A program made the position numbers and the translations under genes. Positions 2,772-28,381 of a stretch of 64,000 nucleotides of DNA are shown piece by piece. The number at the start of each line of letters is the position of its first letter. Within the stretch, counting starts at the first letter, position 1. The notes beneath the pieces were generated by a model that worked only from the letters and a program-made list of their open reading frames with translations, had not been told where the DNA came from and made no database searches. The DNA comes from a virus. Its lineage: Duplodnaviria; Caudoviricetes. Where the stretch lies: the IMG/VR virus record IMGVR_UViG_2654588144_000016, positions 1 through 64,000 of that record. The stretch is one strand, 5' to 3'.

Positions 2772-2783
2772 AAATAATCATTT
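2772..2783 (-). repeat. Cassette junction motif B1 (AAATGATTATTT)
   Basis: Same 12-mer as 7671..7682 and 28370..28381; contains the fibre stop codon. Confidence 0.75.
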
Positions 2784-3668
2784 AATAGCGATTACAAGAC
2801 CCGAAAGACTTATGTTTGCTGTGCCTGTTGCTTGGTTATTACCTTTAATATGTACTTGTCCGTTTTGCCATATACAAGTGCTTATGTTTATTTTAGTACT
2901 GTTATCTCCAGAGATATCAGATAATACAGAAAATACCCATCTATACGCAGATGTCTCAATGTCCACGGGTATATTGGCAAAAAAATCATCTCCGGCAACA
3001 ATAGGAATACTCGATTTAGAATAAGTCATCACAGTTATTTTGGATGCTAAATTGCTATTTAAATTATTTGCCGCTTCCGTCAAATTAGCTCCGGCGGTCA
3101 ACTGTGTTCCCATTCCAATCCGCTCAACCAGTGTATGAATATACGCCGCAGTCGGAATCTTGCTAGAATCATTTGAATCAATGCTGGTAAGCATACTTTT
3201 CAATAATGCGTTCTGATTCAAATTCATTGTCGTGGCAATAGCTTTAGACACCTTGCCTAAAATGGTTGCAATTGCTTCTCCAGTGATAATATTCGCCAAA
3301 TTAGCAGCCTGAGTGAATTCCGTATTGACATCAATTGCGCTATCACTTCCCACCTTAATACTGTTACTTCCTTTTACAATGCCAGTGGTAGATTGGGTAG
3401 CCTTTTTTGCACTCATCTTTCCACTGCTGTTAACGGTAGTTGTTGTGCCGTCTGGCATGACAATACCGGCCTTAGAAGCTGTTGCCAGCACTGCGCTTTT
3501 GCAGAATAATTTGTAGTTCACGCCATCATCTGTAGGCGTAACACCCTTCACTGTTTTTAGCGTCATGTACGCATCACCCTGATAATGTACAAAGGTCAAT
3601 TTTTCATATGTTGTACTGGCGGAATAATTCCCACCGTCTGTCACTGCTACTTTTCCTAAATCTGCCAT
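2778..3668 (-). CDS. Tail fibre / receptor-binding protein: constant aa 1-204 plus expressed cassette 2 (aa 205-296)
   Basis: Fibre-like repeats (ATASKAGIV, ATQSTTGIV); junction NNLNSNLA encoded by site A2. Confidence 0.8.
   Translation of the reverse strand: MADLGKVAVTDGGNYSASTTYEKLTFVHYQGDAYMTLKTVKGVTPTDDGVNYKLFCKSAVLATASKAGIVMPDGTTTTVNSSGKMSAKKATQSTTGIVKGSNSIKVGSDSAIDVNTEFTQAANLANIITGEAIATILGKVSKAIATTMNLNQNALLKSMLTSIDSNDSSKIPTAAYIHTLVERIGMGTQLTAGANLTEAANNLNSNLASKITVMTYSKSSIPIVAGDDFFANIPVDIETSAYRWVFSVLSDISGDNSTKINISTCIWQNGQVHIKGNNQATGTANISLSGLVIAIK
3048..3057 (-). repeat. Crossover site A2 inside fibre gene
   Basis: Minus strand TTTAAATAGCAATTTAGC. Confidence 0.85.
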
Positions 3669-3738
3669 ATTACGTCACCTCACTAATCAAATGTTTCTGC
3701 ATCCCATATAACCGTCCTATCCTTACCAATCCTTACAA

Positions 3739-4521
3739 TCATACTGTCTCCCCACTTCCAATTTGAGAAATAAGATGCCCAGATGAATCTAATGACAGAT
3801 AAAAATTATTTCCACCAATAGCTAACAGATGTCCATTCCCAATATCCACGTATACATTTGGATAAGTCATTGCGGCAACTTCTTGTGCGATTTCGGAATA
3901 TTTTTTAGATTGGTCACAGTAATATTCTGCATTATCTGTCTCGCTTCCATCAAATTCAGCATCACCGATAGCATATCGCTTTGCATTTTTCTGGTACTGC
4001 AAGGCAAGGTCTCTAGCCGACTCAGCATCCAAAAGATATTGCAAAAACGTACTTTGGATAGACGCATCCAGCTTCGCCATGGTAACGGAACCGTCAACGA
4101 TTTCAGCCGTAACTTTCCTGTTTACCATCTTCATCGTGATTGTTGCTGTATTTGAAAAGCTATACACAAACCTTGTCAAATCTACCCGTTTCTTAGTCCC
4201 ATCAGCCAAGGTGAGGATTAGGATATTGTCATCCGTTATGTCAAAATTCACAACTACACGCTCAATGTCCAAATCGTATGTATATACCGTACCGTTTAGC
4301 AGAGTAACCGTAATCACACCAGTTTTCGCATCAACCACAACGGATTTAACCATCAGATTTGCTTCCGATTTTTCTAGTTTTTCAGTATCAAGGTGGATAA
4401 TCCGGTTATCGGCTTCCTTGATTCCGTTTTCTACATGGAGAAGGTTTGTCCTGTTTATTGGCGTTTTCTGAATTGGAAGGTTCTGCCAATCCGTTATCTG
4501 GTAAAACGGTTTATATGCCAT
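3739..4521 (-). CDS. Baseplate/tail-fibre-associated structural protein
   Basis: 260 aa; N-terminal W-N-P...TPINRTNLLHVENGI motif common in Firmicutes tail proteins. Confidence 0.6.
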   Translation of the reverse strand: MAYKPFYQITDWQNLPIQKTPINRTNLLHVENGIKEADNRIIHLDTEKLEKSEANLMVKSVVVDAKTGVITVTLLNGTVYTYDLDIERVVVNFDITDDNILILTLADGTKKRVDLTRFVYSFSNTATITMKMVNRKVTAEIVDGSVTMAKLDASIQSTFLQYLLDAESARDLALQYQKNAKRYAIGDAEFDGSETDNAEYYCDQSKKYSEIAQEVAAMTYPNVYVDIGNGHLLAIGGNNFYLSLDSSGHLISQIGSGETV

Positions 4522-4715
4522 TACACATCTCCCTCTTTCTTTTCTTCTTCAATATATTCCTTTAATGGTTTTCCGGCTTCCAAGATGCTGGCAATCAGTG
4601 CTAGTTTCCGGGCCGCCGCAATTCCCTTGCATTCAAGGCTATCAATAAATCCAACAACTTTATCTATGTCTCTTTTACGGTATACTATCAGTTCGTCTCG
4701 TTTTTCCATGTCCAT
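4521..4715 (-). CDS. Small hypothetical tail-region protein
   Basis: 64-aa ORF coupled to both neighbours. Confidence 0.5.
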   Translation of the reverse strand: MDMEKRDELIVYRKRDIDKVVGFIDSLECKGIAAARKLALIASILEAGKPLKEYIEEEKKEGDV

Positions 4716-6772
4716 TCATCCTTCCTCAAATTTATATACTGAATTGCTCCCGCGAGAATTGCTATATAGTTTCCATATGGCAACGTATATATATCCTCTT
4801 TCTCGTAGTATCCAACCAACGCATAATCCAGATGTAATTCACGCAATACTGTTTTGACATCCTGTGCTATAAATCCTACGCCATGTATATCACAGTCTAT
4901 CAGTTTATAAGCTACAGGTTGCAATCTGGAAACTATTTCATAACATTCCTCTGGGCTTATTTTTTGAATATTCTCCTTGCATCTTCCGTCTGAAATATAC
5001 TGCCAATCCTTACCATACACCGTACCAGTACAATATATCCCTCTCGCATTAACACCGCCAAACGACCCCGTGCCAGCCTCTATTTCTCCATTGCACTCAA
5101 TCCCTTTCTCAGCATAAATGATTCCTGTTGAGTTAAATGCCGCGGCCCTTATTACAGCGTCTGAAGCTTCAACAATGCCAGATGAATTAACCTTAAATTT
5201 CCCGTTACCAATATCGATATTGCCGCCAATAAAAGAGGCACCTCTAATATTTCCCGAAAAAACAGAATCACCACTTTCATCAACCGTAAAATTTTTTGCA
5301 GTAATGATAAAATTCCCTGTGGTCAATTCTATCCTATGGCCTGTTATTTTTAATTCTGAATTCAGCTCACTTGTAACTTCACCCCTGGAAACCTTCTCGC
5401 TAACGCGCAGAGCTATTTCATTTGCTTTTACCGACAAAGAGGATTCAGCTTCCTGCGCTCGCTTAACCTCAGCAGAAATTTCATTGGATGTCACTTTAAA
5501 TTGAGCTTCAGCATATTCTTTTAAATCCGTTACTTTGACAGATACTTCCTCGACTGATTTTTTAATTACAGCTGCTTTTCCCTCTAGCTGGACAATCTCT
5601 GAACGTATGCCTGTATTCTCTTCCAATTCAAGGCTTCCGCGAGCCTCATAGGTATCCATCATTCCCTGGATGCCATTTAGCGTCCGCTTTAGGCAATAGG
5701 TTTCAATTACATCATCTGTTGTATAACAGATAATACCATCTCCCACCTCAACCCAAGGAAGCGCCGGGCCCACTATTTTGCACGGCCTGTACAACCGTCC
5801 ACTTATCTGGTCATAGATAACATCCGCAATTCTGTCTAATTCTTCGCTTGATTTTCCATATGCCAGAAAATTCCCTTGAACCACATAGCAATTTGTACCT
5901 TCCTCATGTGACCAACCGCCAATATCGCCCTCTTCCTGACGTATTTGGACTTTATCAATTGGCCTCACTGTATAATCTTCATAACTGGTTTCTGACTGTT
6001 TATAAAAAGATAGTGTCTCCCCTTGTGACATCTGGGAGGGGAATAAATTATCGTCAGGAAATAAATCTTCGGAAGGAAACAGACTTGCATTTTCAAGCGA
6101 AACATATTTCACTCGGCCAGTCTTATCTATCTGCCCGAAGCATCCATTAATTTCGCAAATGGCCTGCAACACTTTTAATCCGCTCAATTGCTCCGGCTCG
6201 ATTGTCTTTGAAATCAGCATATTATCAAGTGGGAGCGACGTGTCAACCTGCTCTATTCCGATATGACCGCACAATGAATCCCGGAGAGATTTCAGCGTCA
6301 TTGGGAAATTCAGGCCCTGATACCAGGCAGTAACGTCCGTTTGAAATCTTCTCATTCGATTGTAAGCGGTGATTTTCTTTTTTCTGCGGTCAGATTCCAA
6401 CCTCACAAAACTTTCTACCCGATAAATCCCCATGGCCATTTCGTATCCACCAACTTCAATGGTGAAGATAAATTCTTTTCCGGAAAGGTCAATCAATACA
6501 TCTGCCACAGTGATTTCAAACTGCGCCGCATTACACTCTCCAAATTTCAAATCATCGCTTTCACATAGGCTCTCAGTGATTGTCAATGCTTCGGTAAGCA
6601 CCTGCTTATTGTCTATCACATAACACGGCTCTTGGTCTATCGGAAGCAACTCGCCAGAAGGAGACAGGGGAACATCTTTGTTGTAGAAATACAATTTCAA
6701 ATGTCTCCGTGTATCATTTGTTGTATTGTCAGACTTAAATAAACTCTTTATGCTCTCCGGAATATCCAGCAT
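4688..6772 (-). CDS. Tail tip/spike protein with C-terminal S74-type intramolecular chaperone
   Basis: 694 aa; C-terminal SDGRCKENI...LQPVAY...GFIAQDV motif; follows distal tail gene. Confidence 0.75.
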   Translation of the reverse strand: MLDIPESIKSLFKSDNTTNDTRRHLKLYFYNKDVPLSPSGELLPIDQEPCYVIDNKQVLTEALTITESLCESDDLKFGECNAAQFEITVADVLIDLSGKEFIFTIEVGGYEMAMGIYRVESFVRLESDRRKKKITAYNRMRRFQTDVTAWYQGLNFPMTLKSLRDSLCGHIGIEQVDTSLPLDNMLISKTIEPEQLSGLKVLQAICEINGCFGQIDKTGRVKYVSLENASLFPSEDLFPDDNLFPSQMSQGETLSFYKQSETSYEDYTVRPIDKVQIRQEEGDIGGWSHEEGTNCYVVQGNFLAYGKSSEELDRIADVIYDQISGRLYRPCKIVGPALPWVEVGDGIICYTTDDVIETYCLKRTLNGIQGMMDTYEARGSLELEENTGIRSEIVQLEGKAAVIKKSVEEVSVKVTDLKEYAEAQFKVTSNEISAEVKRAQEAESSLSVKANEIALRVSEKVSRGEVTSELNSELKITGHRIELTTGNFIITAKNFTVDESGDSVFSGNIRGASFIGGNIDIGNGKFKVNSSGIVEASDAVIRAAAFNSTGIIYAEKGIECNGEIEAGTGSFGGVNARGIYCTGTVYGKDWQYISDGRCKENIQKISPEECYEIVSRLQPVAYKLIDCDIHGVGFIAQDVKTVLRELHLDYALVGYYEKEDIYTLPYGNYIAILAGAIQYINLRKDEWTWKNETN

Positions 6773-6785
6773 CTATTATCACCAC

Positions 6786-7190
6786 CTAATATTCTGTAAA
6801 TGTTACCTTAATTGGCTTGTACAAAATCTCATTTTTCCCTTCATCAACCATATAAAATTCGTATGGCACATCAGCAATATAAAACGCCCCCGAAGCATAC
6901 GAGGACGTATTAGGATTCCAATATTCAACTTGACATTTCACCCTGTTGTCATGCGGCAAGAAGGAATTAAGTATTTCCGCATCTTTCAAATACAAGGCAG
7001 TTGTTGTGAATTCGATTGATGTAGCCGTGTGTGGAAGCGCAGTCCGATGCAATACTCCATCCGCATCTCGATATGGGTCTAAATCCATTATCTGGTCTGG
7101 AGTGATTTTTAGGGATTCAGCCGCAATAAGTCTGGTGGGGAACGTCTTTCCATTTATTTTTAACAGCCATCCTTCAAAAGCCATAATCAT
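6786..7190 (-). CDS. Distal tail (Dit-like) protein
   Basis: 134 aa; LLKING...RDADGVLHR...VTFTEY; first gene of tail-tip module. Confidence 0.6.
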   Translation of the reverse strand: MIMAFEGWLLKINGKTFPTRLIAAESLKITPDQIMDLDPYRDADGVLHRTALPHTATSIEFTTTALYLKDAEILNSFLPHDNRVKCQVEYWNPNTSSYASGAFYIADVPYEFYMVDEGKNEILYKPIKVTFTEY

Positions 7191-7312
7191 CCCCTCTTAG
7201 CAAACAAAAACACCCAGGATTACCCAGGTGTTATCATATTTCTCTCACTATAAATTTTATCACTTTTTGAATGAAAATTATGAAACTTATTTAATATGAC
7301 ATTCTTCTAAAC

Positions 7313-7373
7313 AATACCATTTTAACATATCCAGGGTGGCATTTGTGGCAAAGATGAATAAAGTAGCAATTTA
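7313..7373 (-). promoter_or_regulatory. 61-bp repeat copy 1: putative late promoter (TGCCAC direct repeat, TGnTAAAAT -10) fused to site A3
   Basis: 57/61 identical to 28045..28105 by eye; points into the tail-tip genes; promoter function is inferred. Confidence 0.7.
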
Positions 7374-7676
7374 GAACTGGAATCAGGGGGAACTACCATT
7401 AATACGGATTGGGTTACCGGAACAGCCAATTATTATAAAATCGGAAAACAATGTGTGGTCAATGCGCTTGTTACATTAAAGCAAGATACATCAGTTAATA
7501 ATACACTACTAATCAGCGGATTGCCTGCTGCTGCGCAGGAAAAAGTATGCCTGATTCATGGTACAACAGGATATGGGGTATTTAAAGTTCTTGCCAATAC
7601 TGGCGACATAACTATTGATGCCGGAGCCAAGGGAAACAGCATATTTTACTTCGAGATAATTTATCCCGCCAAATGA
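7365..7676 (+). other. Silent fibre cassette 3 (103 aa, SNLELESGG...IYPAK)
   Basis: Open frame from site A3 (7364..7373), in frame with ORF 7455..7676. Confidence 0.8.
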
Positions 7677-7682
7677 TTATTT
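7671..7682 (+). repeat. Cassette junction motif B2 (AAATGATTATTT)
   Basis: Contains abutting TGA (+) and TAA (-) stops. Confidence 0.75.
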
Positions 7683-7910
7683 AGTCCAGGATGGTTTCCA
7701 CTCATTATCCTGACGATAGAAGAACTTCATTGCACCATCCGTGGTGCTAATATTAAGTGCATAGCCAAATTCCCTATTCGGTCCAGTCAACCACTGAATT
7801 AGAACATTGTTACTGTCAGTACCAATTGCAAATCCAGTGACGTTGAGCATGACAATCGATTTTTTCAAATTGTTAAAATCAACGGCATTTGCTTTATTTG
7901 TTAAATTGCT
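7677..7910 (-). other. Silent fibre cassette 4 (77 aa, SNLTNKANAV...PSWTK)
   Basis: Open frame from site A4 (TAAATTGCTA 7902..7911). Confidence 0.78.
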
Positions 7911-7929
7911 ATTTTCCAAAATAGAACAG

Positions 7930-7960
7930 GGCAGGAAAGCCATAAGGGGGCTTTCCTGCC
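7930..7960. terminator. Perfect 12-bp hairpin, probable terminator after R-M genes
   Basis: GGCAGGAAAGCC-N7-GGCTTTCCTGCC. Confidence 0.6.
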
Positions 7961-8056
7961 TTGATTACCCATCAGCAAAGACGGGCGAGGCTGTCAACGG
8001 CGGCGCTGTAAGCGCCGTTCATCTTGACCGTTGACTGGCTCGGATGGCTATGCTAT

Positions 8057-9745
8057 TTACGAAGCCAACCACGTATCTACGCAAGCTTGAATGCCAAAAC
8101 ACCAATGATTTTCATCTGTTGCATCCTCACAAAATTTGATGGCATAGTCGAGGAAACGCCGAATGTCGCTTGGAACAGGTTGCGTTTCATAGTTATATGA
8201 GTTTTCAATAAGACGCATAAATTGATCTAGTTCTAATGGTATGATTTTCGACTTGCCACCATATAACGCAATAGACAAATGATTTAGGCCGTAAAAATGT
8301 GCCAGAGTTGCAGGATTGATAGACGGAGCGATAAAGAGACAATAAGTGTCTTTTCCAGATCTTTTCTTCAACTGACCATAATGACGTGCAACGGGTTCTC
8401 CTTCAGATTCATATTGACGCTGACCAGCTTGTAAGGTTACCTCTACAGACAAAGAAAAATCGTCATAGTCACATTCGATATCAGGCATATTTCCGGCCGC
8501 GGTCGAAAGTGGATGTCCAGCGTCATCAAAATTGAAATTACCTTTAATATTGCCGCCGTCAAGCATAGTCATTGCTCGCCATGTATTATACTCAAACATC
8601 AAGGGCGCGTCATAATATTCATCAGAGATAATTTCATTGAATGTGTCAATAATTTCCGAGTACAACGCATAAGATTTTATTTCTGCTACCTGCTCATGTA
8701 TAACAGCATCTTTGTGTCGTTGAACAATCTCATCACGTAAGTCTTTTAGTTCCTCAAGATTTATGCCTGATAACTCCCGTTTCGTAAAATTGCCAATCCG
8801 CATAAGTACATCAACAATATTATCTATATTATCTGTATAAAGAATAGGCGTACTTGCTGAAAACAACTGTGTTTTATAAGCGTTTACATCATTAATAAAA
8901 ACTGGGTCACGCGTCACCGTTGAAAGAATAAAGTCCACTTCAATGACTTTGTCTGCAAAAATAGATATAGACCGACTTTTATGAGAGATAGAGATTAAGC
9001 CAGTATACCTCAAGTAACGGAAGCAAGCATCTGCATAATCACGCATATTACTTTTCTGAGTAGCAATAAACTTTTTTAAACTGGCATCATTTGTTTCTCT
9101 TGTCCTTGTTTTCCCAGCAGCAATTCTATCACGATGTATATCTAAGATTGCATTTTCCCATACGCTATTAACAAAGCGCTTATACTGCCCTCTGTTTTGT
9201 TCTTTATTCTCTCTGAATTGCAAAATAGAATCCCGTATTATCTCAAATTTATGATAATCTGTCATCTGGACAGCAAATATCTTAAATTCATCAAAGGTAA
9301 TGTATTCCAATTCACGGACTAACCGAAAAATTTCGAGATAAGGGCGAATACAAAAAGTCCCAACAATATTTTTGCTCTCCAAATGATATGGAGAAGGTAA
9401 CTGGAATTTTAGTAATTGTCGAAGAAAAATTTCTTGTGGACGCTTGCCATAGATAAAAGCATTCCCAGCTTCCGTTAACTCTATATACGGTTTCAAGTCG
9501 ATAAACCCCAATGCCTTTGGTGCCCGATTGATTCTGTCTCTGGCACTAAACGCTTTATCTGCGGGCGATCCTTTTCCCTCAAAAAATTCACTTTGCGCTA
9601 ATTCATCAATAAACTGCTCTTGAGTCGATTTGTCCCATGATAGCCCTGAAAATTTTTCATGCAATAACTGAATTTCGGGTATCATTTTAGCCGGAGTTCT
9701 TGGCGAAGTAGTAAAAAACAATAGCTTATTATCAATTCTTGCCAC
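8057..9745 (-). CDS. AlwI-family type IIS restriction endonuclease (MlyI/PleI/Nt.BstNBI-like)
   Basis: N-terminal TSPRTP motif; C-terminal PD...VEVTL...QYESEGEPVARH catalytic region. Confidence 0.85.
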   Translation of the reverse strand: MARIDNKLLFFTTSPRTPAKMIPEIQLLHEKFSGLSWDKSTQEQFIDELAQSEFFEGKGSPADKAFSARDRINRAPKALGFIDLKPYIELTEAGNAFIYGKRPQEIFLRQLLKFQLPSPYHLESKNIVGTFCIRPYLEIFRLVRELEYITFDEFKIFAVQMTDYHKFEIIRDSILQFRENKEQNRGQYKRFVNSVWENAILDIHRDRIAAGKTRTRETNDASLKKFIATQKSNMRDYADACFRYLRYTGLISISHKSRSISIFADKVIEVDFILSTVTRDPVFINDVNAYKTQLFSASTPILYTDNIDNIVDVLMRIGNFTKRELSGINLEELKDLRDEIVQRHKDAVIHEQVAEIKSYALYSEIIDTFNEIISDEYYDAPLMFEYNTWRAMTMLDGGNIKGNFNFDDAGHPLSTAAGNMPDIECDYDDFSLSVEVTLQAGQRQYESEGEPVARHYGQLKKRSGKDTYCLFIAPSINPATLAHFYGLNHLSIALYGGKSKIIPLELDQFMRLIENSYNYETQPVPSDIRRFLDYAIKFCEDATDENHWCFGIQACVDTWLAS

Positions 9746-9758
9746 TACTACGCCCTCC

Positions 9759-10613
9759 TTAATAATTTTTCACAACAATATGCATTTTATCATTGTTAAA
9801 GCGGTTTCTTATATTAACGGAATAGTTTTTATAGTATTCATCAAATATATATCCGTTGTATAGTTCTTCCGTTAATGATGTCTTTCCAATTACCATTAGC
9901 GCACGACATTGCAAATTTCTAAAATCTGCGGCTAACCGTCTATGTTCAGCTTCATCAAAACCATTCATCATATCAATATTGCCATAGTCGTTAAACACAC
10001 AATCATATGGTGGATCGAGAAAAATGAAATCCTCCTCTTCTGCCATATCAAAAATTTCTCTGTAATCAAGATTAAAAAGTTCTGCTCGCTGCAACAGTTC
10101 GCTGTGTTGTTGCGTTACCAGTCTTGTATTGAGATTGGGGTAACGTCCAAAGGGAACATTATATTCACCGTTACTATTATAGCGGATCATGCCAGAATAG
10201 GCTGTTTTATTGATGAAGAAATATAATACCCCATCTAAAAAGCTATTGTCTGGATGATTAAAGAGCTCTCGCATATGATAGTACAAGTCCTCATTTGCGT
10301 TTGGCACTCGTTCATCAGGGGTCAAAATTTTCAATCTTTTAAACTCGGCTTGATTAATCTCATAAATTCTTTGGAGCCTATCAAGTTGCGTGCGCATAGT
10401 TGGGTAGTCATCCCGTAATTGCTGATAAAAAGTCATTAACCGGGTATTTGCGTCATTAATAATCGCATTATCGGGTTCCAAATAAAAAAATACCGCTCCG
10501 CCTCCAAAGAAAGGCTCAATGTAACGGTTAAAGTCATCTGGAATATATTGAAGAAAGCGGGGTATTTCCCTCGATTTTCCTCCTCTATATTTTAAAACCG
10601 GGTTCATAAGCAC
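9759..10613 (-). CDS. Dam/D12-class N6-adenine DNA methyltransferase
   Basis: KYRGGK, EPFFGGG, DPPY motifs; coupled to endonuclease. Confidence 0.9.
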   Translation of the reverse strand: MLMNPVLKYRGGKSREIPRFLQYIPDDFNRYIEPFFGGGAVFFYLEPDNAIINDANTRLMTFYQQLRDDYPTMRTQLDRLQRIYEINQAEFKRLKILTPDERVPNANEDLYYHMRELFNHPDNSFLDGVLYFFINKTAYSGMIRYNSNGEYNVPFGRYPNLNTRLVTQQHSELLQRAELFNLDYREIFDMAEEEDFIFLDPPYDCVFNDYGNIDMMNGFDEAEHRRLAADFRNLQCRALMVIGKTSLTEELYNGYIFDEYYKNYSVNIRNRFNNDKMHIVVKNY

Positions 10614-11011: not shown

Positions 11012-11170
11012 GTTAGTCATTCATGCCTTAGGGCTTGAATATATCGGCGATAGTCCTGCTGGGGTATGTTCCCGGTCTGCCAAAAGCTACAGGCGGCGAA
11101 ATGCCGCTTGCAGTTCCTCAACCGATTGAGAATTAGAACTTTTAACAATCAATTTTCGGAGGAAACAAAC

Positions 11171-11872
11171 ATGAACGCATTAAAAATTTTTAGTAATGAT
11201 GAATTTGGAGAAATTAGGACGGTAGAGATTGACGGAAAAATTTATTTTGTCGGTATTGATATTGCACGCGCACTTGGCTATTCCAATCCCAGTAAAGCGG
11301 TTATTCAACATTGCAAAGGGGTTACCAAATTGGGAATACCTTCAAATGGGGGCAAACAGGAGACGAATTGCATTCCAGAGGGAGATTTATACCGCTTGAT
11401 TACGCATAGCGAATTACCTTCTGCAGAACACTTTGAAAATTGGGTTTTTGATGAAGTCCTCCCCTCTATCCGTAAACACGGAATCTATGCAACCGACAAA
11501 GTAATCGACGACATCCTGAATAATCCGGATTTCGGAATCGAACTCCTAACAAAATTGAAAGAAGAACGAGCCGCCCGTCTGGTAGCAGAAAAGAAAAACG
11601 CCATTCTTATGCACGTCAACAAAACATATACGATGACAGAAATTGCCAAGGAACTCGGTCTGAAGTCTGCCATAGAACTGAACAAACTACTTGCCGAAAA
11701 GAAAATCCAATATAAAGTAAATGAAACGTGGGTCATGTATTCTCAGTACAGCGACTTGGGTTATGAGGAAATCAAACAGGAAGTCTTGGACAACGGCAAA
11801 GTTATCTATCACAGAAGAATTACACAGATGGGCCGGGAATTTATATTGAATTTATTCGATTTTGTAGCATAA
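11171..11872 (+). CDS. Phage antirepressor (BRO-N + KilA-C)
   Basis: FGEIRTV...WVFDEVLPSIRKHG BRO domain; ITQMGREFI C-terminus; GGAGG RBS before ATG 11171. Confidence 0.9.
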   Translation: MNALKIFSNDEFGEIRTVEIDGKIYFVGIDIARALGYSNPSKAVIQHCKGVTKLGIPSNGGKQETNCIPEGDLYRLITHSELPSAEHFENWVFDEVLPSIRKHGIYATDKVIDDILNNPDFGIELLTKLKEERAARLVAEKKNAILMHVNKTYTMTEIAKELGLKSAIELNKLLAEKKIQYKVNETWVMYSQYSDLGYEEIKQEVLDNGKVIYHRRITQMGREFILNLFDFVA

Positions 11873-13516: not shown

Positions 13517-13580
13517 ATGTACCCCCCTCCAATCTGATATCAAAATTGTATCATTTCGGGAGGGGATTTTCAATATTCCA

Positions 13581-20343: not shown

Positions 20344-20360
20344 TTACCTCCCAGTTTTCT

Positions 20361-20855: not shown

Positions 20856-20931
20856 GGTTCATATCCTCCTTAAAATTTGGAATAAAAAAAGAACCACACA
20901 GTTTCCTGCATGGCTCAAAGTTATTTAGTTG

Positions 20932-21315
20932 CTATATCACATCGCCCTCGCAATAGGTTCTTCGGAACCTTGCTATCCAGCGATATGCTTCTGTTGTACT
21001 GGACCGTTCTATTTCAGTCGGACCGTAATTCATTGTAAATCCCATCTTCTGCATAAGGTCAGACGCCAGAAAGATTAGCTGCTTCGCTTTGGTACTTGAA
21101 GTAGAATCATAAATGGTAATCTCAAAAGCAGCTTGTATGGCGCATTGCTTATTCTGCAAGGAAGAACTGGTTGTTGGCTCCCCCAATGTTTTCATGTACA
21201 AATACGGAAATGCCGATGGAGTGTCATTCTTAGTTGTACTGCTACCTTTCAGATATTTCTTCATCTGCTCGTTGTTTATCAGTCTGGAATAGACCAGTGA
21301 GGAAATGTCAAGCAT
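20932..21315 (-). CDS. Tail terminator/completion protein
   Basis: Position, size, FPYLY motif. Confidence 0.65.
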   Translation of the reverse strand: MLDISSLVYSRLINNEQMKKYLKGSSTTKNDTPSAFPYLYMKTLGEPTTSSSLQNKQCAIQAAFEITIYDSTSSTKAKQLIFLASDLMQKMGFTMNYGPTEIERSSTTEAYRWIARFRRTYCEGDVI

Positions 21316-21845
21316 TACGAGAACACCTCCTTTGCAATTGACGCTACCTGTTCACGGATAGCCACCGAAGCGCTATACATAGGCATCGTGGCTTTCACAC
21401 CGTGAGTGTAATGCCACTTCTCATCTTCGCCCCAGTAATACCATCCATCTTCAAAAGCATGAATCTGTCCGGGGAAAGTTCCGATTCCATACCACATTTC
21501 CCCAGCTTTCGGATTGTCTGATGGATTGTAGAATACGCCCGCACCAAACTCAACGAGCAAAAGCGTATTTACGGTGCCATAATCATTTGATTTTGTCTGT
21601 CCAGACGCAATCAGAATGGCTTTGCAGCCTGCCTTTGATGGTTCCATATCAATTCGCAAGGAGATTGTCTTACCCAGCGGAGATTCTCCGATTTTCGTCT
21701 GCGCCACGGTCAATCCAACTTCTGCCAACCGCTTACACAACAGTTCAGTCTTGCGGTGCAAGTCTTGTTTGTAGTCTTGAAGTTGGTCGATAATGCTCTG
21801 GATTCCCTTTGAGGACAGTTCTCCACGGATTATTCGTTTTCCCAT
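21315..21845 (-). CDS. HK97 gp10-like neck/tail-completion protein
   Basis: VEFGAG and THGVKATMPMY motifs. Confidence 0.7.
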   Translation of the reverse strand: MGKRIIRGELSSKGIQSIIDQLQDYKQDLHRKTELLCKRLAEVGLTVAQTKIGESPLGKTISLRIDMEPSKAGCKAILIASGQTKSNDYGTVNTLLLVEFGAGVFYNPSDNPKAGEMWYGIGTFPGQIHAFEDGWYYWGEDEKWHYTHGVKATMPMYSASVAIREQVASIAKEVFS

Positions 21846-21853
21846 ACAAACAC

Positions 21854-22168
21854 CTACTCAAGCAACGGAGACAGCGGCATAACCTTGTCATAGGTTTTCT
21901 CGAATATATCCGGCTTGCATGGGTAAAGTTCTCCGTTTACGCCTTGAATGATATAATCTCCCACACTGGCATGGTGAACACCCTCAAGGGTTTTAATAAA
22001 CAGCTCTACGGGCGGCGAATCACAATCCATGCTGTCGTAATACATTACACCATCCTCAAAGGCCTTTACTGCCCATTCCGGCACATACCACTTGCCGTCT
22101 TTTCCTTTTAAATCCCCGTCGTACTGAAATGCTTCAATCTCAACGGGTTTTTTCCTATATTTAGCCAT
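21854..22168 (-). CDS. Conserved small phage protein (YRKKPV...GDYII...YPCKPDIF family)
   Basis: Recognisable widespread phage motif; function not assigned. Confidence 0.7.
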   Translation of the reverse strand: MAKYRKKPVEIEAFQYDGDLKGKDGKWYVPEWAVKAFEDGVMYYDSMDCDSPPVELFIKTLEGVHHASVGDYIIQGVNGELYPCKPDIFEKTYDKVMPLSPLLE

Positions 22169-22430
22169 CGTTCCGTTCCTCCGTTTTCCAAGTCTCCTTT
22201 AAATGTTTCAAGACATCAATCAACTCGTCAATAGCTTTCTCGTTCTTGAATTCCAAAACACAAGGAATCTTTCGTAAATCAACTCCGTCTTCTGCTATCG
22301 GTCGATAATCCAGTAGAACTGTTGGATATTGTTCTTCCTTCCCTTCTCTTGGCTCCAGCATAGCTACGTAAATATCCTTATCAAAGGTCACTTTGCATTG
22401 GTCAAATCTATATGTCTCATGTTGAATCAT
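22161..22430 (-). CDS. Hypothetical protein
   Basis: 89-aa ORF coupled to neighbours. Confidence 0.55.
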   Translation of the reverse strand: MIQHETYRFDQCKVTFDKDIYVAMLEPREGKEEQYPTVLLDYRPIAEDGVDLRKIPCVLEFKNEKAIDELIDVLKHLKETWKTEERNDG

Positions 22431-22857
22431 TTTGCATTCCTCCCTCTGTCACTTTCCGAATCGCATACAAAACCGAATTCAAAGACTTTGCCACCTTAAC
22501 AACCTTGAAATCGGGCTTATTGGTCAACTTTCCGTCTGCGCAAAATTCCGGCTTCTTATCCACGAATAACACCGACAATTCATCAATCGGCAAATTCATG
22601 TCACAAGTGGCAATCGTTTTGTCATAAGCCAAATCAACGCCAAATGGGTCTGTATTTGCTTCCCCTCTGGCGGCTGATACGTTTGCCCGAAACTCCACAG
22701 GGTCAGCATAGCCAACAGTACAATCGCCAGTCAAAAGCGGTTCTCCGGTCACGGGGTCATAGATGATGTTACCATCAAGGTCTGTCTCATAGACCGGAAT
22801 GTGTTCTGAATAGAGCTGATACCACATCTTTTGCTTATTGCGTTTCAGTCCTCTCAT
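22417..22857 (-). CDS. Head closure/stopper protein
   Basis: Start MRGLKRNKQ; position after connector; VAKSLNSVLYAIRKV C-terminus. Confidence 0.65.
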   Translation of the reverse strand: MRGLKRNKQKMWYQLYSEHIPVYETDLDGNIIYDPVTGEPLLTGDCTVGYADPVEFRANVSAARGEANTDPFGVDLAYDKTIATCDMNLPIDELSVLFVDKKPEFCADGKLTNKPDFKVVKVAKSLNSVLYAIRKVTEGGMQNDST

Positions 22858-22873
22858 AGTGCCCACCGCCTTA

Positions 22874-23359
22874 TCACTCAACCAGAACCCAATCCTCTGC
22901 CAGCATATCAGCCTGTGAAGCAAGCCATCCCATCTGCACTCCAGACGTTCCGACAAAGGCAATGGCTTTATTTCCGATTGCTTCATGCTCCACATTCACA
23001 GCGTTTCCATCTGCGTCAATATAGCTGATATTAGTCGCAAGCTGAATATATTGGTTCCTTCCATTCCAGCCTTTACGGGCAACACGCTCTCCTCTCTTCA
23101 TACGAGATATTGCCTCGCCGAATGTAAAAGTGGACACGTCAAGTCCCGTAATGGAATCCCAGTCAACAATTTCCCAGTCATCTGCCATCATGTGGTCGAT
23201 ATCAACAAAGATACACTCTGTTTCCATGAATGGAACTTTTGAACCGTCTTTGCAGTACATGACAATCGTTTCATCTTCTTTGCGCCAGAAACCTTTCCAT
23301 GATGGTCTTTTAATATCTGCGCCCTGTTTCAGTGCTTCATAAGCTTCTTTAAAAATCAT
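22874..23359 (-). CDS. Tandem DUF2829 (Tad2-like) protein
   Basis: Two copies of F-EA..LK.G..(I/V).R..W ... DM(M/L)A(D/E)DW. Confidence 0.75.
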   Translation of the reverse strand: MIFKEAYEALKQGADIKRPSWKGFWRKEDETIVMYCKDGSKVPFMETECIFVDIDHMMADDWEIVDWDSITGLDVSTFTFGEAISRMKRGERVARKGWNGRNQYIQLATNISYIDADGNAVNVEHEAIGNKAIAFVGTSGVQMGWLASQADMLAEDWVLVE

Positions 23360-23399
23360 TCTTCTTTACCTCCACAAATTTCCTCATAATTTACTTTAA

Positions 23400-23558
23400 T
23401 CATTCTTTTCCCTTGAGTTCGTTCATTCTGTCCTGAATATATCCCTCAAGCACTGAAAATCCTTTTGGCGTGTCAAATCTTTTCCTTTTCAGTTCGGTTT
23501 TGATGGTATTGATTTCTTCTTTTACGCCCTGTAATTCAATCAATCCACCAGTTTTCAT
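23400..23558 (-). CDS. Small hypothetical protein
   Basis: MKTGGLIELQ..., 52 aa; upstream extension in ORF track overlaps the connector gene. Confidence 0.45.
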   Translation of the reverse strand: MKTGGLIELQGVKEEINTIKTELKRKRFDTPKGFSVLEGYIQDRMNELKGKE

Positions 23559-23712
23559 ATCATCGTTCACTTTTCCTCCATAACCTCCACAAAAGAAAAA
23601 TGCGCTTGCCCACCACCATTCACAGCGCACACCCTGCGTCCAGCCGGGGAGGTATCGACCGGACACGCTCCGTCTTTTAAAAGGAGAGTCAACTTTTGGA
23701 ATTACATACGGT

Positions 23713-24033
23713 TCAGAAAATTTTTGCCATCGGGACAACATCAAAATAGATATCGTCTTCTTTCTCATATGCTCGGCTGATTCCATTCTCGCTGTGAGAG
23801 CTTTCACCATCAGCCCCTTGTTTCGCCCAATAGTAAACAGCGGCGGCAAATATCGTATCACGATACCGCTCAACCGCTGTCTCTTTCTCCGTGTCCGTGT
23901 ATCCAAACGGATACCGCTTCGCACAAACCTTTCGGATTGCTCTCTGGATTAAGATGAACAGAACCGACAAATCTTTTTCGGCTACCTCGTCACCAAGATA
24001 TGTAATTACATCATCCAGAATCTCCGCTTCCAC
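23713..24033 (-). CDS. Head-tail connector (SPP1 gp15-like)
   Basis: GADGESSHSENGISRAY motif. Confidence 0.85.
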   Translation of the reverse strand: MEAEILDDVITYLGDEVAEKDLSVLFILIQRAIRKVCAKRYPFGYTDTEKETAVERYRDTIFAAAVYYWAKQGADGESSHSENGISRAYEKEDDIYFDVVPMAKIF

Positions 24034-24049
24034 TCATTTCACCTCACAA

Positions 24050-25372
24050 TCAGCCTGCCTTTGCGGTCACCGTTGTGCTACCGGCTTTCAGAGCCTTGTA
24101 TGCTGAATCGCACTCAACTACGGTAATGGTCTTTCCAGTCTGCGCTGTAATGTCAGCAGAGCCATCCCATGCAGTCCAGGTCTGGACATTCTGACCGAAA
24201 ACAACAGCGGTTTCGGAATCACCTATTTTATACTTATATGAATTTCCGCTTGCCTTTGCCGGGGAAACAGTCAGTTTCGTTGCTCCGCTTGCAGAACCGG
24301 CGGATGATTCCACAGTCAGAGTGCCAAGAGTGTTCTCAGCAGTAGTAACCGTAGCGATTACCATACCATATACGTCCGGAAGGACCGGGATAAACATACC
24401 AGAAGCTTTCGTCCATTTTGCAACAGGGTCTTCGGTCGCCCACATGGTCACGGTTACAAACATTTTCTGCAATGCTTCCTGGAATGCAGCATACTCAGCC
24501 TCCTCCGGAGTCGGTCCCCACAAACCAGTACCGGCCCTACCAGATACATCCGCCGTATAGAAGGTAACCTTGTCCTCATCGAAGTAGCGACCATTCACTC
24601 TGGAACCATCAGCCTTGATGTAGGCATATCTTTCATCACAGGTAGCAATTTGAAGGCCGAACTCCTCCATGATGATAGACCGAAGTTCATTCATGGTAAC
24701 CAGTCTACCCGCATTGATATTACCGTAGATTGCGGATTGGATGCCCTTGTTCTTTCTCATGCGCTGAATCTGGGTATCAGAGGTCAGCATTCTGGACGGA
24801 ATTTTACCCTCATCCTTCAGCATTTTTACTGCCTTCATGATATCGCCAAAGATATCATATTCTGGGTTAGACCAATCACCAAAAGTGATTTTATGAGCCG
24901 CAGGTACACCAAAATCAATCAACATATCCAGATTATTTTCCTTGATTTTCATTACACCACGGCTCATTGCCTGACCTTTGGCAATCTTGGTACGGGTAAC
25001 AACGCTCTCGGACAATCTGCCCATATCGTCAAACACCCAGTTCACCAGACCATCATCATCTGGTACACCATTGTTGATGTACATCTGCAACTGCTCGGAC
25101 TGATTGATTTTCTCCTTGATAAACAGTTTCTCAGTCAGAACTTTCTCGAAAGTCGGCCTGGTACCGATGTGCGCCTCGGAATCCAGAGCATGCACAAATG
25201 CAGGAGTTGGCAAATTCTGTCCCTGCATTAGCCGGTAATACTCAGCCTTGAAGTGCTGTGTCTTCACGTCCGGGAAAATGGTATCCAGAACGGTTGGCCT
25301 TGCAACGGCGAAGTTCTGAGAAAAATTTAATCTCTCTGTAACATTAATTGTATCCAATACATTAAATGGCAT
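24050..25372 (-). CDS. Major capsid protein (capsid E-like) with C-terminal Ig-like extension
   Basis: 440 aa after scaffold/decoration; C-terminal ~95 aa Thr/Ser-rich beta domain. Confidence 0.85.
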   Translation of the reverse strand: MPFNVLDTINVTERLNFSQNFAVARPTVLDTIFPDVKTQHFKAEYYRLMQGQNLPTPAFVHALDSEAHIGTRPTFEKVLTEKLFIKEKINQSEQLQMYINNGVPDDDGLVNWVFDDMGRLSESVVTRTKIAKGQAMSRGVMKIKENNLDMLIDFGVPAAHKITFGDWSNPEYDIFGDIMKAVKMLKDEGKIPSRMLTSDTQIQRMRKNKGIQSAIYGNINAGRLVTMNELRSIIMEEFGLQIATCDERYAYIKADGSRVNGRYFDEDKVTFYTADVSGRAGTGLWGPTPEEAEYAAFQEALQKMFVTVTMWATEDPVAKWTKASGMFIPVLPDVYGMVIATVTTAENTLGTLTVESSAGSASGATKLTVSPAKASGNSYKYKIGDSETAVVFGQNVQTWTAWDGSADITAQTGKTITVVECDSAYKALKAGSTTVTAKAG

Positions 25373-25386
25373 CTTTACACCTCCAA

Positions 25387-25731
25387 TTAAAATTCACATT
25401 CTGGAGCATCAAGAATTACAAATCCTTTTTTCTCCAAAGCTGTCTTGGCTTCGCTGGATAACGGCGTCTTTAATCTATTTCCGTAGATTCTTCCAGCTTT
25501 AATAACGCTGGCTGGACGATTTGTATCGTCAGTCATATCAACAGTTTCAAATACAATACCAGTTGCCTTGGAATCATTAGACGGGAATGCCGTTCCAGCA
25601 TAAATAAGCTTCTTGTTGTCAACTGTAGTTGCCATCTCCTGGGTAACCATCTCTGTTTTCTGAACCAGGCCAACGGCAGATTCCAAAAAATTTGGCAGGC
25701 TATATCCCTGCTCAACCTTCATGTAAGCCAT
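25387..25731 (-). CDS. Head decoration protein
   Basis: AGTAFPSNDSKATGIV motif; between scaffold and capsid. Confidence 0.65.
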   Translation of the reverse strand: MAYMKVEQGYSLPNFLESAVGLVQKTEMVTQEMATTVDNKKLIYAGTAFPSNDSKATGIVFETVDMTDDTNRPASVIKAGRIYGNRLKTPLSSEAKTALEKKGFVILDAPECEF

Positions 25732-25743
25732 GTCATATCCTCC

Positions 25744-26355
25744 TTAAAATGTTGTTGTGGCAGCCGGAACCGGATTGCCTACCGTCGGCTGTGGGTTATG
25801 TTCCTGCGAATACTGTTTCGCATATTCAGCGGCAGCACTCTTTTCTTCTCCACCTCCAGCCGGGTCGGATTTGCCTCCGGTCCCCGGATTCGGAGTTTTG
25901 TCAAAAGTTTCTTTCTGCCACTGGGTCTTGTTCGCTTCGTCGCGTTTGGAGATTCCATTGACAAAAGATTCTGCGCTGGTCTTTGCCGCCTCCAAATCAA
26001 GCCCGGATAATGCGCCAATCATCCCGGAAAACTCCTCGCCGGAAAGGTTTGCTTTTGCGAAAATCGCTTCGACTGCGGAAGTTGTAAGCTGCTTCTGTAA
26101 ATCTGCCGTTCTCTTTTCCGCTGCCTCTCTGGCTTTCTTCTCCTTTTCCAATTCGGTAAGATTCTGTTGCTCAAGACCATCAAGTTTGGTTTGCAGCTCC
26201 TCCGCCTTTTCAGCTTCTTTTTTCCATTTCTCAGCGTCTTCCTGATATTTCTTTACTTCTCCATTGTGCTGATTTAGGTAATTGGTTACCTGCTCATCAG
26301 TAGGTTCCTCGACGCCAAGCGCAACCAGATTCTTCTTTGCCTGTTCTCTTGTCAT
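25744..26355 (-). CDS. Capsid scaffolding protein
   Basis: MTREQAK start, charged coiled coil, TPNPGTGG linker. Confidence 0.8.
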   Translation of the reverse strand: MTREQAKKNLVALGVEEPTDEQVTNYLNQHNGEVKKYQEDAEKWKKEAEKAEELQTKLDGLEQQNLTELEKEKKAREAAEKRTADLQKQLTTSAVEAIFAKANLSGEEFSGMIGALSGLDLEAAKTSAESFVNGISKRDEANKTQWQKETFDKTPNPGTGGKSDPAGGGEEKSAAAEYAKQYSQEHNPQPTVGNPVPAATTTF

Positions 26356-26456
26356 GTTATTCCCCTTTCTAATCCACGCTTTTGATAACGCAGGTCGCTC
26401 CTGCTGGATTTTGCCATTTATCGGATGGCTCCATTTTGATATAAAAAAAGAAAAGC

Positions 26457-27905
26457 CTACTCGGCTCCTCCTGTTTTAACTGTTTCAGTTTGCTTTGTTT
26501 TCAAAAGTTCCAATGCGTGTTCTTTTTCAGCTTCAATATCAAGTTGCTCCTGCGTCTTGAAAATGGTATCCATGTACGGCTTACTCTGCGTCCAAACCTT
26601 TTCCGGGTCACCAAACAGCCCGCATACAGTAATTGCAATCAGCGGATGAATCTTATTTTTCAGTAAATAATCCAGCGCCTGTGCCTTAACCAGCATATTA
26701 TCAGTAGAATTTCGAGTAATCTTCACATCGAAGTCTCTTACTGTCAGAGGAACATCATTTGTTGTTTGCTTAATGATATTCAAAACAATTCTGGCATGTT
26801 TTTTCTCTGCCTCAATGGTAAATGGTTCATCCAGTTTTGCCCGCTGTTCCGCAAAATCCCAACCATTCCGCAGGTAAACCGCCTGTCCGGTATCTCCGCC
26901 GGTATTCTGCTGTCGGTCTGGCATACCCTCAACGACAAGTACTTGTCGGTACACATCATCCTTGGCTACTTGCGTCTGCTGCTGATTCAATTCAGCCGTC
27001 ATGAGTTTTACATCTGATTGCATTCCCTGACCGGAATCTTTAACCTCCACAGCACCAAGGTCACACATCTGTAAAAACTTCTTCTCATCAATCTCACAGT
27101 TCTTAAAAAGCATAAATGCCTGAATAAACTGTTCAATACCATTCATGCGGTCGGACTGCATTTTGTTAATCTGGTCAAGAAGCGTAATCACAATTTCAAT
27201 GTCGGAGAGCCTGTCCGGATTATTCGGATACTCCACAATCGGAATACCGCCAAAACCATTTATTCCAGAATCAGTTACTCTACCGCCCTTGATGATGAAA
27301 TATAAATCATCCGAATAGCACTGATAATACTGTTCGTCTTTTTCATCCTTCAATACCTGAATGGAAAGCATATCTGAATCATCTTTGGCAGAATACACAA
27401 CAATCGTATTCAGCGGATTCGGAATATGGATTCGGAACGGAACAATATCTGTTGACTTTCCTTTAAGCGTTACCTTGTAGGCAGTTCCAACGGCACTCTG
27501 AAAATTTCCAAGCTTGATATCTCTGGCCTGCCGATGAGCGTCCTTCATGTAATCATTTAGTTTATCCACGGCATCATTGATTTTTTTATCTGTTTTTCGG
27601 CTGACATACTGTATCGGCTCCCCATATGTCTGACTGGTGCTAAAGCGGACAATTTCAAGTGCATGGTTCTCGCAGGTCTTATTGTTGATGTCAGGCCGCA
27701 CTTTCTTTTCACGGTAATGAATCGGCTGGTCACCCTTGTAGTAATCGTAAAGATACCGTATCGCCGGTCGATTGTAATTCAGAACTGAAATGGCCTTACC
27801 AACGACACCAACAACATTTTCTTTGGTAATTCTATCGACATTCGTATATGCAATTTTTCTACCAAAATGTCCATGGCATAAATCAATAAAGCTATTACTG
27901 TTCAT
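26457..27905 (-). CDS. Portal protein (SPP1 gp6-like)
   Basis: LYDYYKGDQ, YGEPIQY, IPIVEYPNN motifs. Confidence 0.9.
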   Translation of the reverse strand: MNSNSFIDLCHGHFGRKIAYTNVDRITKENVVGVVGKAISVLNYNRPAIRYLYDYYKGDQPIHYREKKVRPDINNKTCENHALEIVRFSTSQTYGEPIQYVSRKTDKKINDAVDKLNDYMKDAHRQARDIKLGNFQSAVGTAYKVTLKGKSTDIVPFRIHIPNPLNTIVVYSAKDDSDMLSIQVLKDEKDEQYYQCYSDDLYFIIKGGRVTDSGINGFGGIPIVEYPNNPDRLSDIEIVITLLDQINKMQSDRMNGIEQFIQAFMLFKNCEIDEKKFLQMCDLGAVEVKDSGQGMQSDVKLMTAELNQQQTQVAKDDVYRQVLVVEGMPDRQQNTGGDTGQAVYLRNGWDFAEQRAKLDEPFTIEAEKKHARIVLNIIKQTTNDVPLTVRDFDVKITRNSTDNMLVKAQALDYLLKNKIHPLIAITVCGLFGDPEKVWTQSKPYMDTIFKTQEQLDIEAEKEHALELLKTKQTETVKTGGAE

Positions 27906-28044
27906 CAGCTTTTACCCTCTTCTGTCAAAAAAGTAAGGCCGTTGGAGGATTTTCTATATCCTTCAACGGCTTGCATTTATTTCAATATTAATAGTTATAT
28001 CAAACATCCTTAATTTAATTTGGATGTCTCGCATACTTTTTACT

Positions 28045-28105
28045 AATACCATTTTACCATATCCTAAGTGGCATTTGTGGCAAAGATGAATAAAGTAGCA
28101 ATTTA
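28045..28105 (-). promoter_or_regulatory. 61-bp repeat copy 2: putative late promoter for portal operon fused to site A5
   Basis: TTGCCACAAATGCCAC...TGGTAAAAT on minus strand; downstream of activator gene; promoter function is inferred. Confidence 0.7.
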
Positions 28106-28375
28106 AACGATGGAAAATACTGGCGTGCATATACAACCACTTTTGCATTTGGTCGAGAAATACCAGCTGGTAAAGACATGACATTTGATTTAAATATTAG
28201 TTTTCCGGCACGTCCATCTGTACTTGTCATTATTCCCTCTACTGCCAAAATAACAAACGTAAGGTATGATTTTGACAATTCGACCTCGACCAAGACAAGA
28301 ATCATCTTTGACAACGAGGGAGCGACAATACCCGCAGATGCTATGGTACGTATGGGCGTTATCGCTATCAAATGA
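28097..28375 (+). other. Silent fibre cassette 5 (92 aa, SNLNDGKYW...GVIAIK)
   Basis: Open frame from site A5 (28096..28105), in frame with ORF 28178..28375; same length and VIAIK end as expressed cassette 2. Confidence 0.78.
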
Positions 28376-28381
28376 TTATTT
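28370..28381 (+). repeat. Cassette junction motif B3 (AAATGATTATTT)
   Basis: Identical to B1 and B2. Confidence 0.75.

Follow-up and report, generated by a model that had tools for sequence, protein, structure and literature searches.

A conserved palindromic joint between convergent tail-fibre cassettes in a shufflon-type phage locus

A 64,000-nucleotide stretch of viral DNA (Duplodnaviria, Caudoviricetes; positions 1 to 64,000 of IMG/VR record IMGVR_UViG_2654588144_000016, a provirus of 77.7 kb; hereafter the window) carries three pairs of convergent tail-fibre cassettes, and the two cassettes of every pair meet at the same 12-base sequence, AAATGATTATTT. An initial annotation, made from the letters of the window, had proposed that this 12-mer is a second recombination site, at which single cassettes could be exchanged between depots or phages. 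The locus raises the question of what the shared 12-mer is: a site of recombinase action, a by-product of the stop codons that it contains, or a boundary between modules. We found that it is a conserved module boundary and a DNA-level element, and that cassettes on its two sides have different partners in different phages. With about as much doubt as confidence, we favour the explanation that it is the relic palindrome of a tail-to-tail joint, a shared 3΄ linker of modular tail-fibre tips at which single cassettes would be swapped non-enzymatically.

Three cassette pairs and the motif at which they meet

In the window, AAATGATTATTT has three exact matches, compared with 0.05 expected, and three or more were reached in none of 100 shuffled sequences. 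A looser pattern, AAATNNNNATTT, has 17 matches (7.1 expected), five of which belong to the cassette system. The three copies lie at positions 2772-2783 (minus strand), 7671-7682 (plus) and 28370-28381 (plus), as the initial annotation had reported, and the 14-mers that it quoted had been read correctly. Each copy is the meeting point of two convergent open cassettes for the C-terminal part of a tail fibre, and each cassette starts at an inverted copy of a 5΄ site, TAGCAATTTA (hereafter the A site); the bracketing of every cassette by an A site and the junction motif, which had also been claimed, holds in all three pairs. For five of the six cassettes, the 12-mer provides a lysine codon and the stop. 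It gives Lys-TGA to the expressed cassette Y at the first copy; Lys-TGA to cassette X (plus) and Lys-TAA to cassette Z (minus) at the second; and Lys-TGA to cassette Y2 (plus) and Lys-TAA to cassette X΄ (minus) at the third, with no spacer at the second and third copies. The earlier statement that the motif supplies the stops fails for cassette W (2408-2770), which ends with IVF-TGA-TAA one base before the motif, its own TGA (2768-2770) being out of frame with it.

The six copies of TAGCAATTTA form three inverted pairs (2408/3048, 7362/7902 and 28094/28679), one around each of three segments of 540-640 bases. From each A site, an inward frame spelling (N/S)SNL is open for 78-120 codons and ends at the 12-mer or one base before it, and each segment consists of two convergent cassettes. 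In pair 1, the A site at 3048-3059 (minus, AATAGCAATTTA) lies within a tail-fibre gene of 296 aa (2778-3668, minus), where it encodes NSNL and joins the constant part (3061-3668) to cassette Y (2778-3059); the A site on the silent side (2408-2419, plus, AGTAGCAATTTA) opens cassette W (2408-2770, plus), which extends for 120 aa after the site. Pair 2 is bounded by A sites at 7362-7373 (plus) and 7902-7913 (minus) and holds the silent cassettes X (7362-7676, plus, 104 aa) and Z (7677-7913, minus, 78 aa). Pair 3, between A sites at 28094-28105 (plus) and 28679-28690 (minus), holds the silent cassettes Y2 (28094-28375, plus, 93 aa) and X΄ (28376-28690, minus, 104 aa), the DNA of the latter being 83% identical to that of X. 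All six cassettes are thus open in the frame in which TAGCAATTTA reads xSNL, and one of them is fused to the open reading frame (ORF) at 2778-3668. This ORF has weak PHROG matches to virion proteins, and upstream of it lies a 694-residue tail-fibre protein with a Peptidase_S74 chaperone domain.

The unbiased flanks of 84 A sites showed A at position –3 in 82 of the 84, A or T at –2, A or G at –1, and G at +10 in 62. The left arm is kept as DNA even where the flank is non-coding (the A at –3), and the consensus of the 84 flanks is AAATAGCAATTTAG, with the arms AAAT/ATTT that are also present in the junction motif. The locus is a shufflon-type tail-fibre system in which three two-cassette segments are bounded by inverted A sites of this consensus, encoding NSNL; pair 1 is fused to the fibre gene, and pairs 2 and 3 are silent depots, dispersed at 4 kb and 25 kb from it. 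The initial annotation had stressed that the A site and the junction motif share an architecture. Their arms do match, but those of the junction are forced by its Lys-stop codons: the AAAT-N4-ATTT shape arises because two such codon pairs abut, and the shape alone is therefore not independent evidence.

Two other roles for the junction motif were considered and rejected. An ATG within the motif would open a coupled downstream ORF of only 3-4 codons in pairs 2 and 3, and the motif is merely a 12-base A/T-rich palindrome, which does not fit a terminator.

Two observations concern the surroundings of the A sites. Between the large terminase gene and pair 3 lies an ORF for a 151-residue regulator-like protein (28686-29141, minus), which ends with AAG TAG CAA within the A site at 28679-28690, in a frame different from that of the cassette, so that the TAG of the site doubles as the stop of this ORF. 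The left flanks of the two depots (7300-7373 and 28032-28105) are alike over 74 bases (88%), A site included, and the same 74-base flank follows the fibre-locus pair in locus L010 and a depot in locus L004. The depots seem to have spread along with a piece of array spacer.

Conservation of the joint and reassortment of cassettes

Relatives were collected as 207 loci from viral, genome and metagenome collections, using protein-based searches and an A-to-A DNA pattern (pair sizes of 520-580 bases). A pair was kept if it contained two convergent open cassettes of at least 30 codons whose stops were between 40 bases overlapping and 60 bases apart. This filter retained 170 of 250 site pairs, corresponding to 90 distinct pair sequences; the site pairs that failed it are chance matches of two 10-mers. 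The census demanded exact 10-base A cores and, for most loci, pair sizes of 520-580, and a pair of more than 600 bases, like pair 1 of the window, could enter it only through protein-based loci. A first screen of the genome collection gave 28 matches, approximately the chance expectation, of which 15 had no open cassettes and were dropped; the stricter filter yielded 11 distinct real pairs, one locus containing an N having been excluded. Named genome records with real pairs belong to Lachnospiraceae, Hungatella, Lacrimispora, Clostridium and a few other metagenome-assembled genomes, and the sequencing runs that hold window DNA are from pig, bovine and other gut metagenomes. Against named phages, a blastn search with positions 2300-8000 gave one short match, to Enterocloster phage PMBT24 (212 bases at 83%). 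The 180 cassettes of the census fall into 93 families at 50% identity.

In the junction zone, 40 of the 90 distinct pairs have an exact copy of AAATRATYATTT, the motif with its two variable positions; 22 differ from it at one base, 6 at two and 22 at three or more. The corresponding numbers for the 42 distinct viral pairs were 22, 14, 2 and 4, and among the 11 distinct pairs of bacterial genomes the motif was missing in 6. Outside the pairs, the viral-stage loci L001-L061 and the record of the window together contained only 4 exact matches in 603,499 positions, all of which proved to be further cassette junctions whose A site is degenerate or off the locus; the cassette interiors contained none in 21,809 positions. 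Conservation at the junction stops at 12 bases, and the variable positions (R and Y) are exactly those that stop codons permit.

The way in which the motif is read differs among cassettes. The 124 cassette ends on the side of the motif were sorted by their stops: Lys-stop in 69, TAA made of the flanking T and AA in 19, a stop instead of AAA in 14, a stop 4 bases upstream in 8 and 2-30 bases upstream in 10, and, for overlapping cassettes, a stop 16 bases beyond the motif in 4. One pair with such an overlap was found at L035:3142-3697 and L045:7813-8368, where the two cassettes share 16 bases: one ends with Lys-TGA in the motif, and the other reads through it to a stop 16 bases beyond. Among the 10 ends with a stop 2-30 bases upstream, those in L042, L051 and L034 leave the motif unread on one or both sides (in L042 on both). 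Among 64 distinct cassettes that end in lysine, the terminal codon is AAA in 62 and AAG in 2, compared with 71% AAA inside the same cassettes. Its reading frame varies and some copies are not read at all; the motif therefore belongs to the DNA level and is not a by-product of Lys-stop codons. Its conservation exceeds what these codons predict, an issue that the initial annotation had itself raised, as is apparent from the frame independence, the bias towards AAA and the 40 exact copies in 90 pairs. These results indicate that the AAATRATYATTT junction is a real conserved module boundary.

The central four bases were compared among 61 pairs of families: the core is GATT/AATC in 33, GATC in 9, AATT in 1 and GACC in 1, and the motif is absent in 17. 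Avoidance of GATC was considered as the cause of the mixture of TGA and TAA and was rejected because TGATCA joints exist.

We further analyzed the partners of each cassette. Of the 93 families in the census, 23 are represented in two or more distinct pairs, and for 14 of the 23 the partners come from two or more families, in agreement with the earlier inference that single cassettes could be swapped. Cassette W is paired with Y, U, V and a fourth family, the W cassettes with these four partner families being 94-98% identical to one another; Y is paired with W, V, T and another family. When the window was compared with other phages, homology of the W module covered 2401-2783 and that of the Y module 3060-2772 or 2773, and the two tracts overlap in the 12-mer alone. 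With a single exception, the displayed comparisons had matches whose end lay no more than 16 bases from the stop; the exception is L034, which has kept approximately 26 bases of the displaced partner. In pig-gut contigs, other cassettes, or none, stand between the A site and the motif: one contig jumps from the A site at 7372 to the motif at 7671, and another joins a V-type cassette end at 7674. Comparison of these sequences indicates that single cassettes have been exchanged at the junction boundary.

Not all of these joints are precise. The joint of cassette V falls 6, 9 or 11 bases into the motif or at the TGATAAA of W, and L033 has an 8-base duplication at the joint. Families X and Y are found on either side of the asymmetric core, and cassettes that lack their half of the motif (V, W and S) have also been reassorted, at varying positions.

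Inversion, whole-pair exchange and the role of the joint

Inversion at the A sites is visible in nature. Joints were sought in the assembled contigs of four metagenome runs, which drop rare forms, and two of the four contained A × A inversion of pair 1 as opposite-strand joints, one linking 2409 with 3057 with 12 shared letters (run X9) and the other linking 2380 with 3069 (run X6). The X|Y2 depot is inverted between the otherwise collinear genomes G001/G003 and G002. Both orientations of a segment thus occur, with the joints in A sites, as expected of a shufflon. No opposite-strand or deletion joint between two junction motifs is listed for the contigs of the four runs, a result that says little since rare forms joined motif to motif could escape.

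Whole pairs also appear in different surroundings. Pair 3, which lies between the genes for the large terminase (29161-31986) and the portal (26457-27905), is 98% identical over 28092-28693 to a pair in the 90-165 kb phages G001/G002, where the flanks are unrelated. A metagenome contig with likewise unrelated flanks matches pair 2 at 99.6% identity over 7360-7914, and the relatives G006 and L173 have different pairs at the same position between terminase and portal. Whole pairs move as units bounded by A sites, and exchange at this level therefore requires only A; it is the better documented form of cassette exchange.

Two further arrangements involve the A sites. L005 and L008, which are 98.5% and 82% identical to the window up to that place, have no depot pair 2 where the window has 7362-7373, and carry instead only a partial site (TTTAGCAATAAGG or TGTAGCC), empty or decayed, whose breakpoint lies within A. 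In a 15.8 kb contig (L010:10604-12704, compared with window 28105-26587), the sequence after the fibre-locus pair is the portal-side flank of window pair 3, at 97% identity. Recombination between directly oriented A sites 25 kb apart would give this order; alternatively, the 74-base flank repeat may have caused a chimeric assembly. Integrons, in which an integrase excises cassettes as circles and inserts them at attI, with attC at the cassette 3΄ ends, were considered by analogy only; directly repeated sites around single cassettes were not seen.

A candidate catalyst of the inversion, judged by its sequence, is the Xer-like tyrosine recombinase at 47548-48582 (minus), the only one in the 77.7 kb record, 44 kb from the fibre gene. 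In five of five large relatives, a tyrosine recombinase 29-31% identical to it lies within the cassette array, and none of the same five has a serine recombinase. The array genomes G005 (123 kb; also L209) and G004 (157 kb; L208, 6698-13305) have seven pairs (14 cassettes) separated by spacers of 60-73 bases, and the Xer-like recombinase gene stands between the sixth and the seventh pair. Outside the window and close to the end of the provirus record lies a large serine recombinase (76317-76754, in L001, with an open frame of 457 aa), which is probably the integrase.

How, then, would the joint have arisen and what would it do? We infer an origin by inverted duplication, in which two gene ends reading ...AAA TGA would have been set tail to tail, giving AAATGA.TCATTT and hence the joint AAATRATYATTT; one transition would turn this into the form with GATT. 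Inversion at A sets either cassette of a pair in frame with the constant fibre gene. The joint holds stops in two of the three frames of each strand (TAA with the flanking T, and TRA inside), and it therefore terminates any cassette spliced before it. It would remain, together with the A sites, as a scaffold while cassettes are replaced. As the joint is the only sequence common to unrelated cassettes, crossovers that replace a single cassette would fall in or beside it. Most probably, such crossovers occur rarely, by illegitimate recombination or recombination over short homology, and have been fixed by selection on host range; they would not be cuts by the invertase. The joining of V at 6, 9 or 11 bases, the remnant in L034 and the duplication in L033 are signs of non-enzymatic joining.

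Several points weigh against this explanation. The arms of the A site and of the junction motif are alike (AAAT-AGCA-ATTT and AAAT-RATY-ATTT), a likeness of sequence only, and the left arm of A is kept in non-coding flanks. A core-variant A site, AAATAGTGATTTAG (encoding NSDL), has unchanged arms and has changed in concert at both ends of a pair in L006 (10612-10625 and 11717-11730) and L040 (11809 and 12484), where it forms a perfect inverted repeat around the cassette pair; a concerted change of this kind is what heterospecific recombinase sites would show. The asymmetric core is overrepresented (33 of 44 motif-bearing family pairs), more than independent stop codons would yield, although these pairs are not independent of each other. 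Twelve bases are very short for exchange driven by homology, and yet exchange looks frequent. In addition, many pairs of the census are related, and its counts are accordingly not independent.

Of these points, the shared arms, the core-variant A site and the overrepresented core favour the explanation given by the initial annotation, namely that the 12-mer serves the same recombinase as a second, heterospecific site of crossover, with the arms AAAT/ATTT and the core RATY in place of AGCA, and that A × A recombination combined with recombination between two junction motifs swaps single cassettes between genome copies or co-resident phages. We consider this possible, yet doubtful. It would also account for the restriction of the motif to junctions in approximately 600 kb, for the overlap of the W and Y homology tracts precisely over the 12-mer, and for the pig-gut joints from 7372 to 7671 and at 7674. 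Moreover, in the largest component of the reassortment network, all 18 motif-bearing edges have an A/T-centred core (GATT or AATT), and all 9 edges with GATC lie outside the three largest components. L040 has AAATAGTGATTTAG nested 36-54 bases outside sites of the AGCA type, so that its cassettes carry two types of site in tandem. It is accordingly conceivable, with much the same reserve, that AAAT/ATTT arms carry three or more heterospecific classes of core (AGCA, AGTG and RATY), the 12-mer being one of them and a true crossover site, and that the Xer-like invertase runs a natural cassette exchange in phages of Lachnospiraceae. If so, single receptor-binding tips would be swapped between depots, between genome copies and between co-resident phages.

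However, a second site of the same enzyme would be expected to be kept as strictly as the first within one genome, and this is not what we found. In G004, 14 of 14 A cores are exact, but the motif is exact in only 2 of 7 pairs, with four copies differing at one position (each change being different) and one at two; in G001, 5 of 6 A cores are exact and the motif is exact in 1 of 3 pairs. The 22 of 90 pairs with three or more mismatches keep open cassettes and intact A sites. The occurrence of X and Y on both sides of an asymmetric core is unexpected from simple exchange between two such sites, and neither the reassortment of V, W and S without their motif half nor the confinement of conservation to 12 bases favours it. 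No motif-to-motif joint is listed for the contigs of the four runs, compared with A × A joints of pair 1 in two of them. Thus, bracketing, conservation and reassortment, to which the core-variant A site may be added, stand from the claim of heterospecific single-cassette exchange, but recombinase action at the motif is unsupported. The crossovers exactly at the 12-mer that the initial annotation had proposed to look for are matched by homology breakpoints within the motif, but not by motif-to-motif joints in these contigs, and some joints are imprecise. On these sequences, the reading of the 12-mer as a second recombinase site is weakened and stays unproven.

A further explanation, which we regard as rather unlikely, is that the motif consists merely of Lys-stop codons inherited by cassettes from one duplicated pair, with no role in exchange and no constraint of its own. 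It would agree with the 34 of 93 families that end in lysine and with the 69 Lys-stop ends among 124, with the match of R and Y to the freedom of stop codons, and with the decay of the motif within arrays. Inheritance alone does not explain why families that share less than 50% of their residues should have the 12 bases exact in 40 of 90 pairs, why the terminal lysine codon is so strongly biased towards AAA, why the motif is kept where it is read in another frame or unread, or why the homology of otherwise unrelated pairs ends inside it. Finally, an accessory site that aids synapsis of the A sites, by binding the recombinase without cleavage or by binding a DNA-bending host protein, as in the enhancer of Hin/Gin-type invertases, would suit a palindrome kept as DNA between both A sites of every segment, but is very unlikely given that its distance to A is not constant (one array alone has cassettes of 44 to 119 residues), that it is absent in 22 of 90 pairs with intact A sites (6 of 11 in bacterial genomes), and that it leaves unexplained why cassette homology ends at the motif.

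Related systems and neighbouring features

Phage tail-fibre shufflons are already known as a kind (Rin, BV01-like, Min and R64). The R64 shufflon (Rci/sfx) and the Min system of p15B are multiple-inversion systems with convergent alternative 3΄ gene ends between inverted sites; they act on the PilV adhesin or on coliphage fibres, Min with a serine invertase. To our knowledge, no conserved junction motif has been described for either. Engineered recombinase-mediated cassette exchange uses heterospecific lox or FRT sites with identical arms and different cores, the cassette being flanked by two sites that do not cross-react. By comparison, exchange of whole pairs in the present system needs just two inverted copies of one site, and recombination at a second site is putative. 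In the modular theory of Susskind and Botstein, short conserved linkers reportedly stand at the module junctions of lambdoid phages, with mosaic breakpoints there. Here, in contrast, a 12-base palindrome forms the linker; it also serves both strands as a stop in two frames and is embedded in a site-specific inversion system.

Two further related systems are phage shufflons. The Rin shufflon of Bifidobacterium prophages, in the accessible text of its report, has alternative C-terminal receptor-binding cassettes, 11 bp rix repeats upstream of each and a predicted tyrosine-family invertase (PMC6109161). By that text, the two systems have in common that they are phage-encoded, with alternative C-terminal cassettes, a short repeat before each and a predicted or candidate enzyme of the tyrosine family; they differ in that the Rin cassettes adjoin the recombinase in one locus, whereas here the depots are dispersed and the recombinase is 44 kb away. 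The same text does not mention a conserved motif at the 3΄ ends of the cassettes, although the supplementary figures may show the junctions (PMC6109161). A BV01-like phage of a Bacteroidaceae host, according to the accessible sections of a preprint, has an active shufflon of several cassettes, which overlaps a gut-phage tail-fibre gene at its distal end and has the recombinase alongside (PMC13596623). As described there, it differs from the present system in its host, in its 10-bp motif (TGGGAGAACT, with extensions of 14-18 bp) and in having three cassettes, and those sections describe no second motif (PMC13596623). Our literature search found neither cassette exchange nor a junction motif described for phage shufflons; the GuFi preprint mentions diversity-generating retroelements alone. 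New here are the conservation of the 3΄ joint, the dispersal of the depots, the 5΄ site with a variant core and the size of the cassette pool that is shared.

The cassettes follow a common standard, with a universal 5΄ adaptor (the NSNL site) and a universal 3΄ adaptor (the palindromic stop-stop joint). Cassettes of at least 93 families share these adaptors; the phages and prophages that carry them belong to gut Clostridia (Lachnospiraceae, Hungatella and Lacrimispora) from pig, bovine and human samples, and whole pairs and, by the comparisons above, single cassettes travel between unrelated phage backbones. The system is therefore a testable case for the question of whether short linkers guide the exchange of phage modules, and whether they do so enzymatically. 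It also represents a natural, ready-made design for swapping receptor-binding tips.

Some features next to depot pair 2 were also noted. The 146 bases between this pair and the AlwI gene (7915-8060) had a contig depth of 600-5655, compared with approximately 10-100 nearby, in all four metagenome runs. On the minus strand, they can form three hairpins (–65.2 kcal/mol, z –7.3), the last of which is terminator-like; Rfam gave no match at 7600-8400. This sequence may be a widespread structured repeat or the end of a mobile element. Pair 2 adjoins an AlwI-type restriction-modification pair, which belongs to an island of an AlwI-family restriction endonuclease (8057-9745), a DNA methyltransferase (9759-10613) and an Ant-like anti-repressor (11066-11872). 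The relatives L005 and L008 have different DNA at the place of this island.

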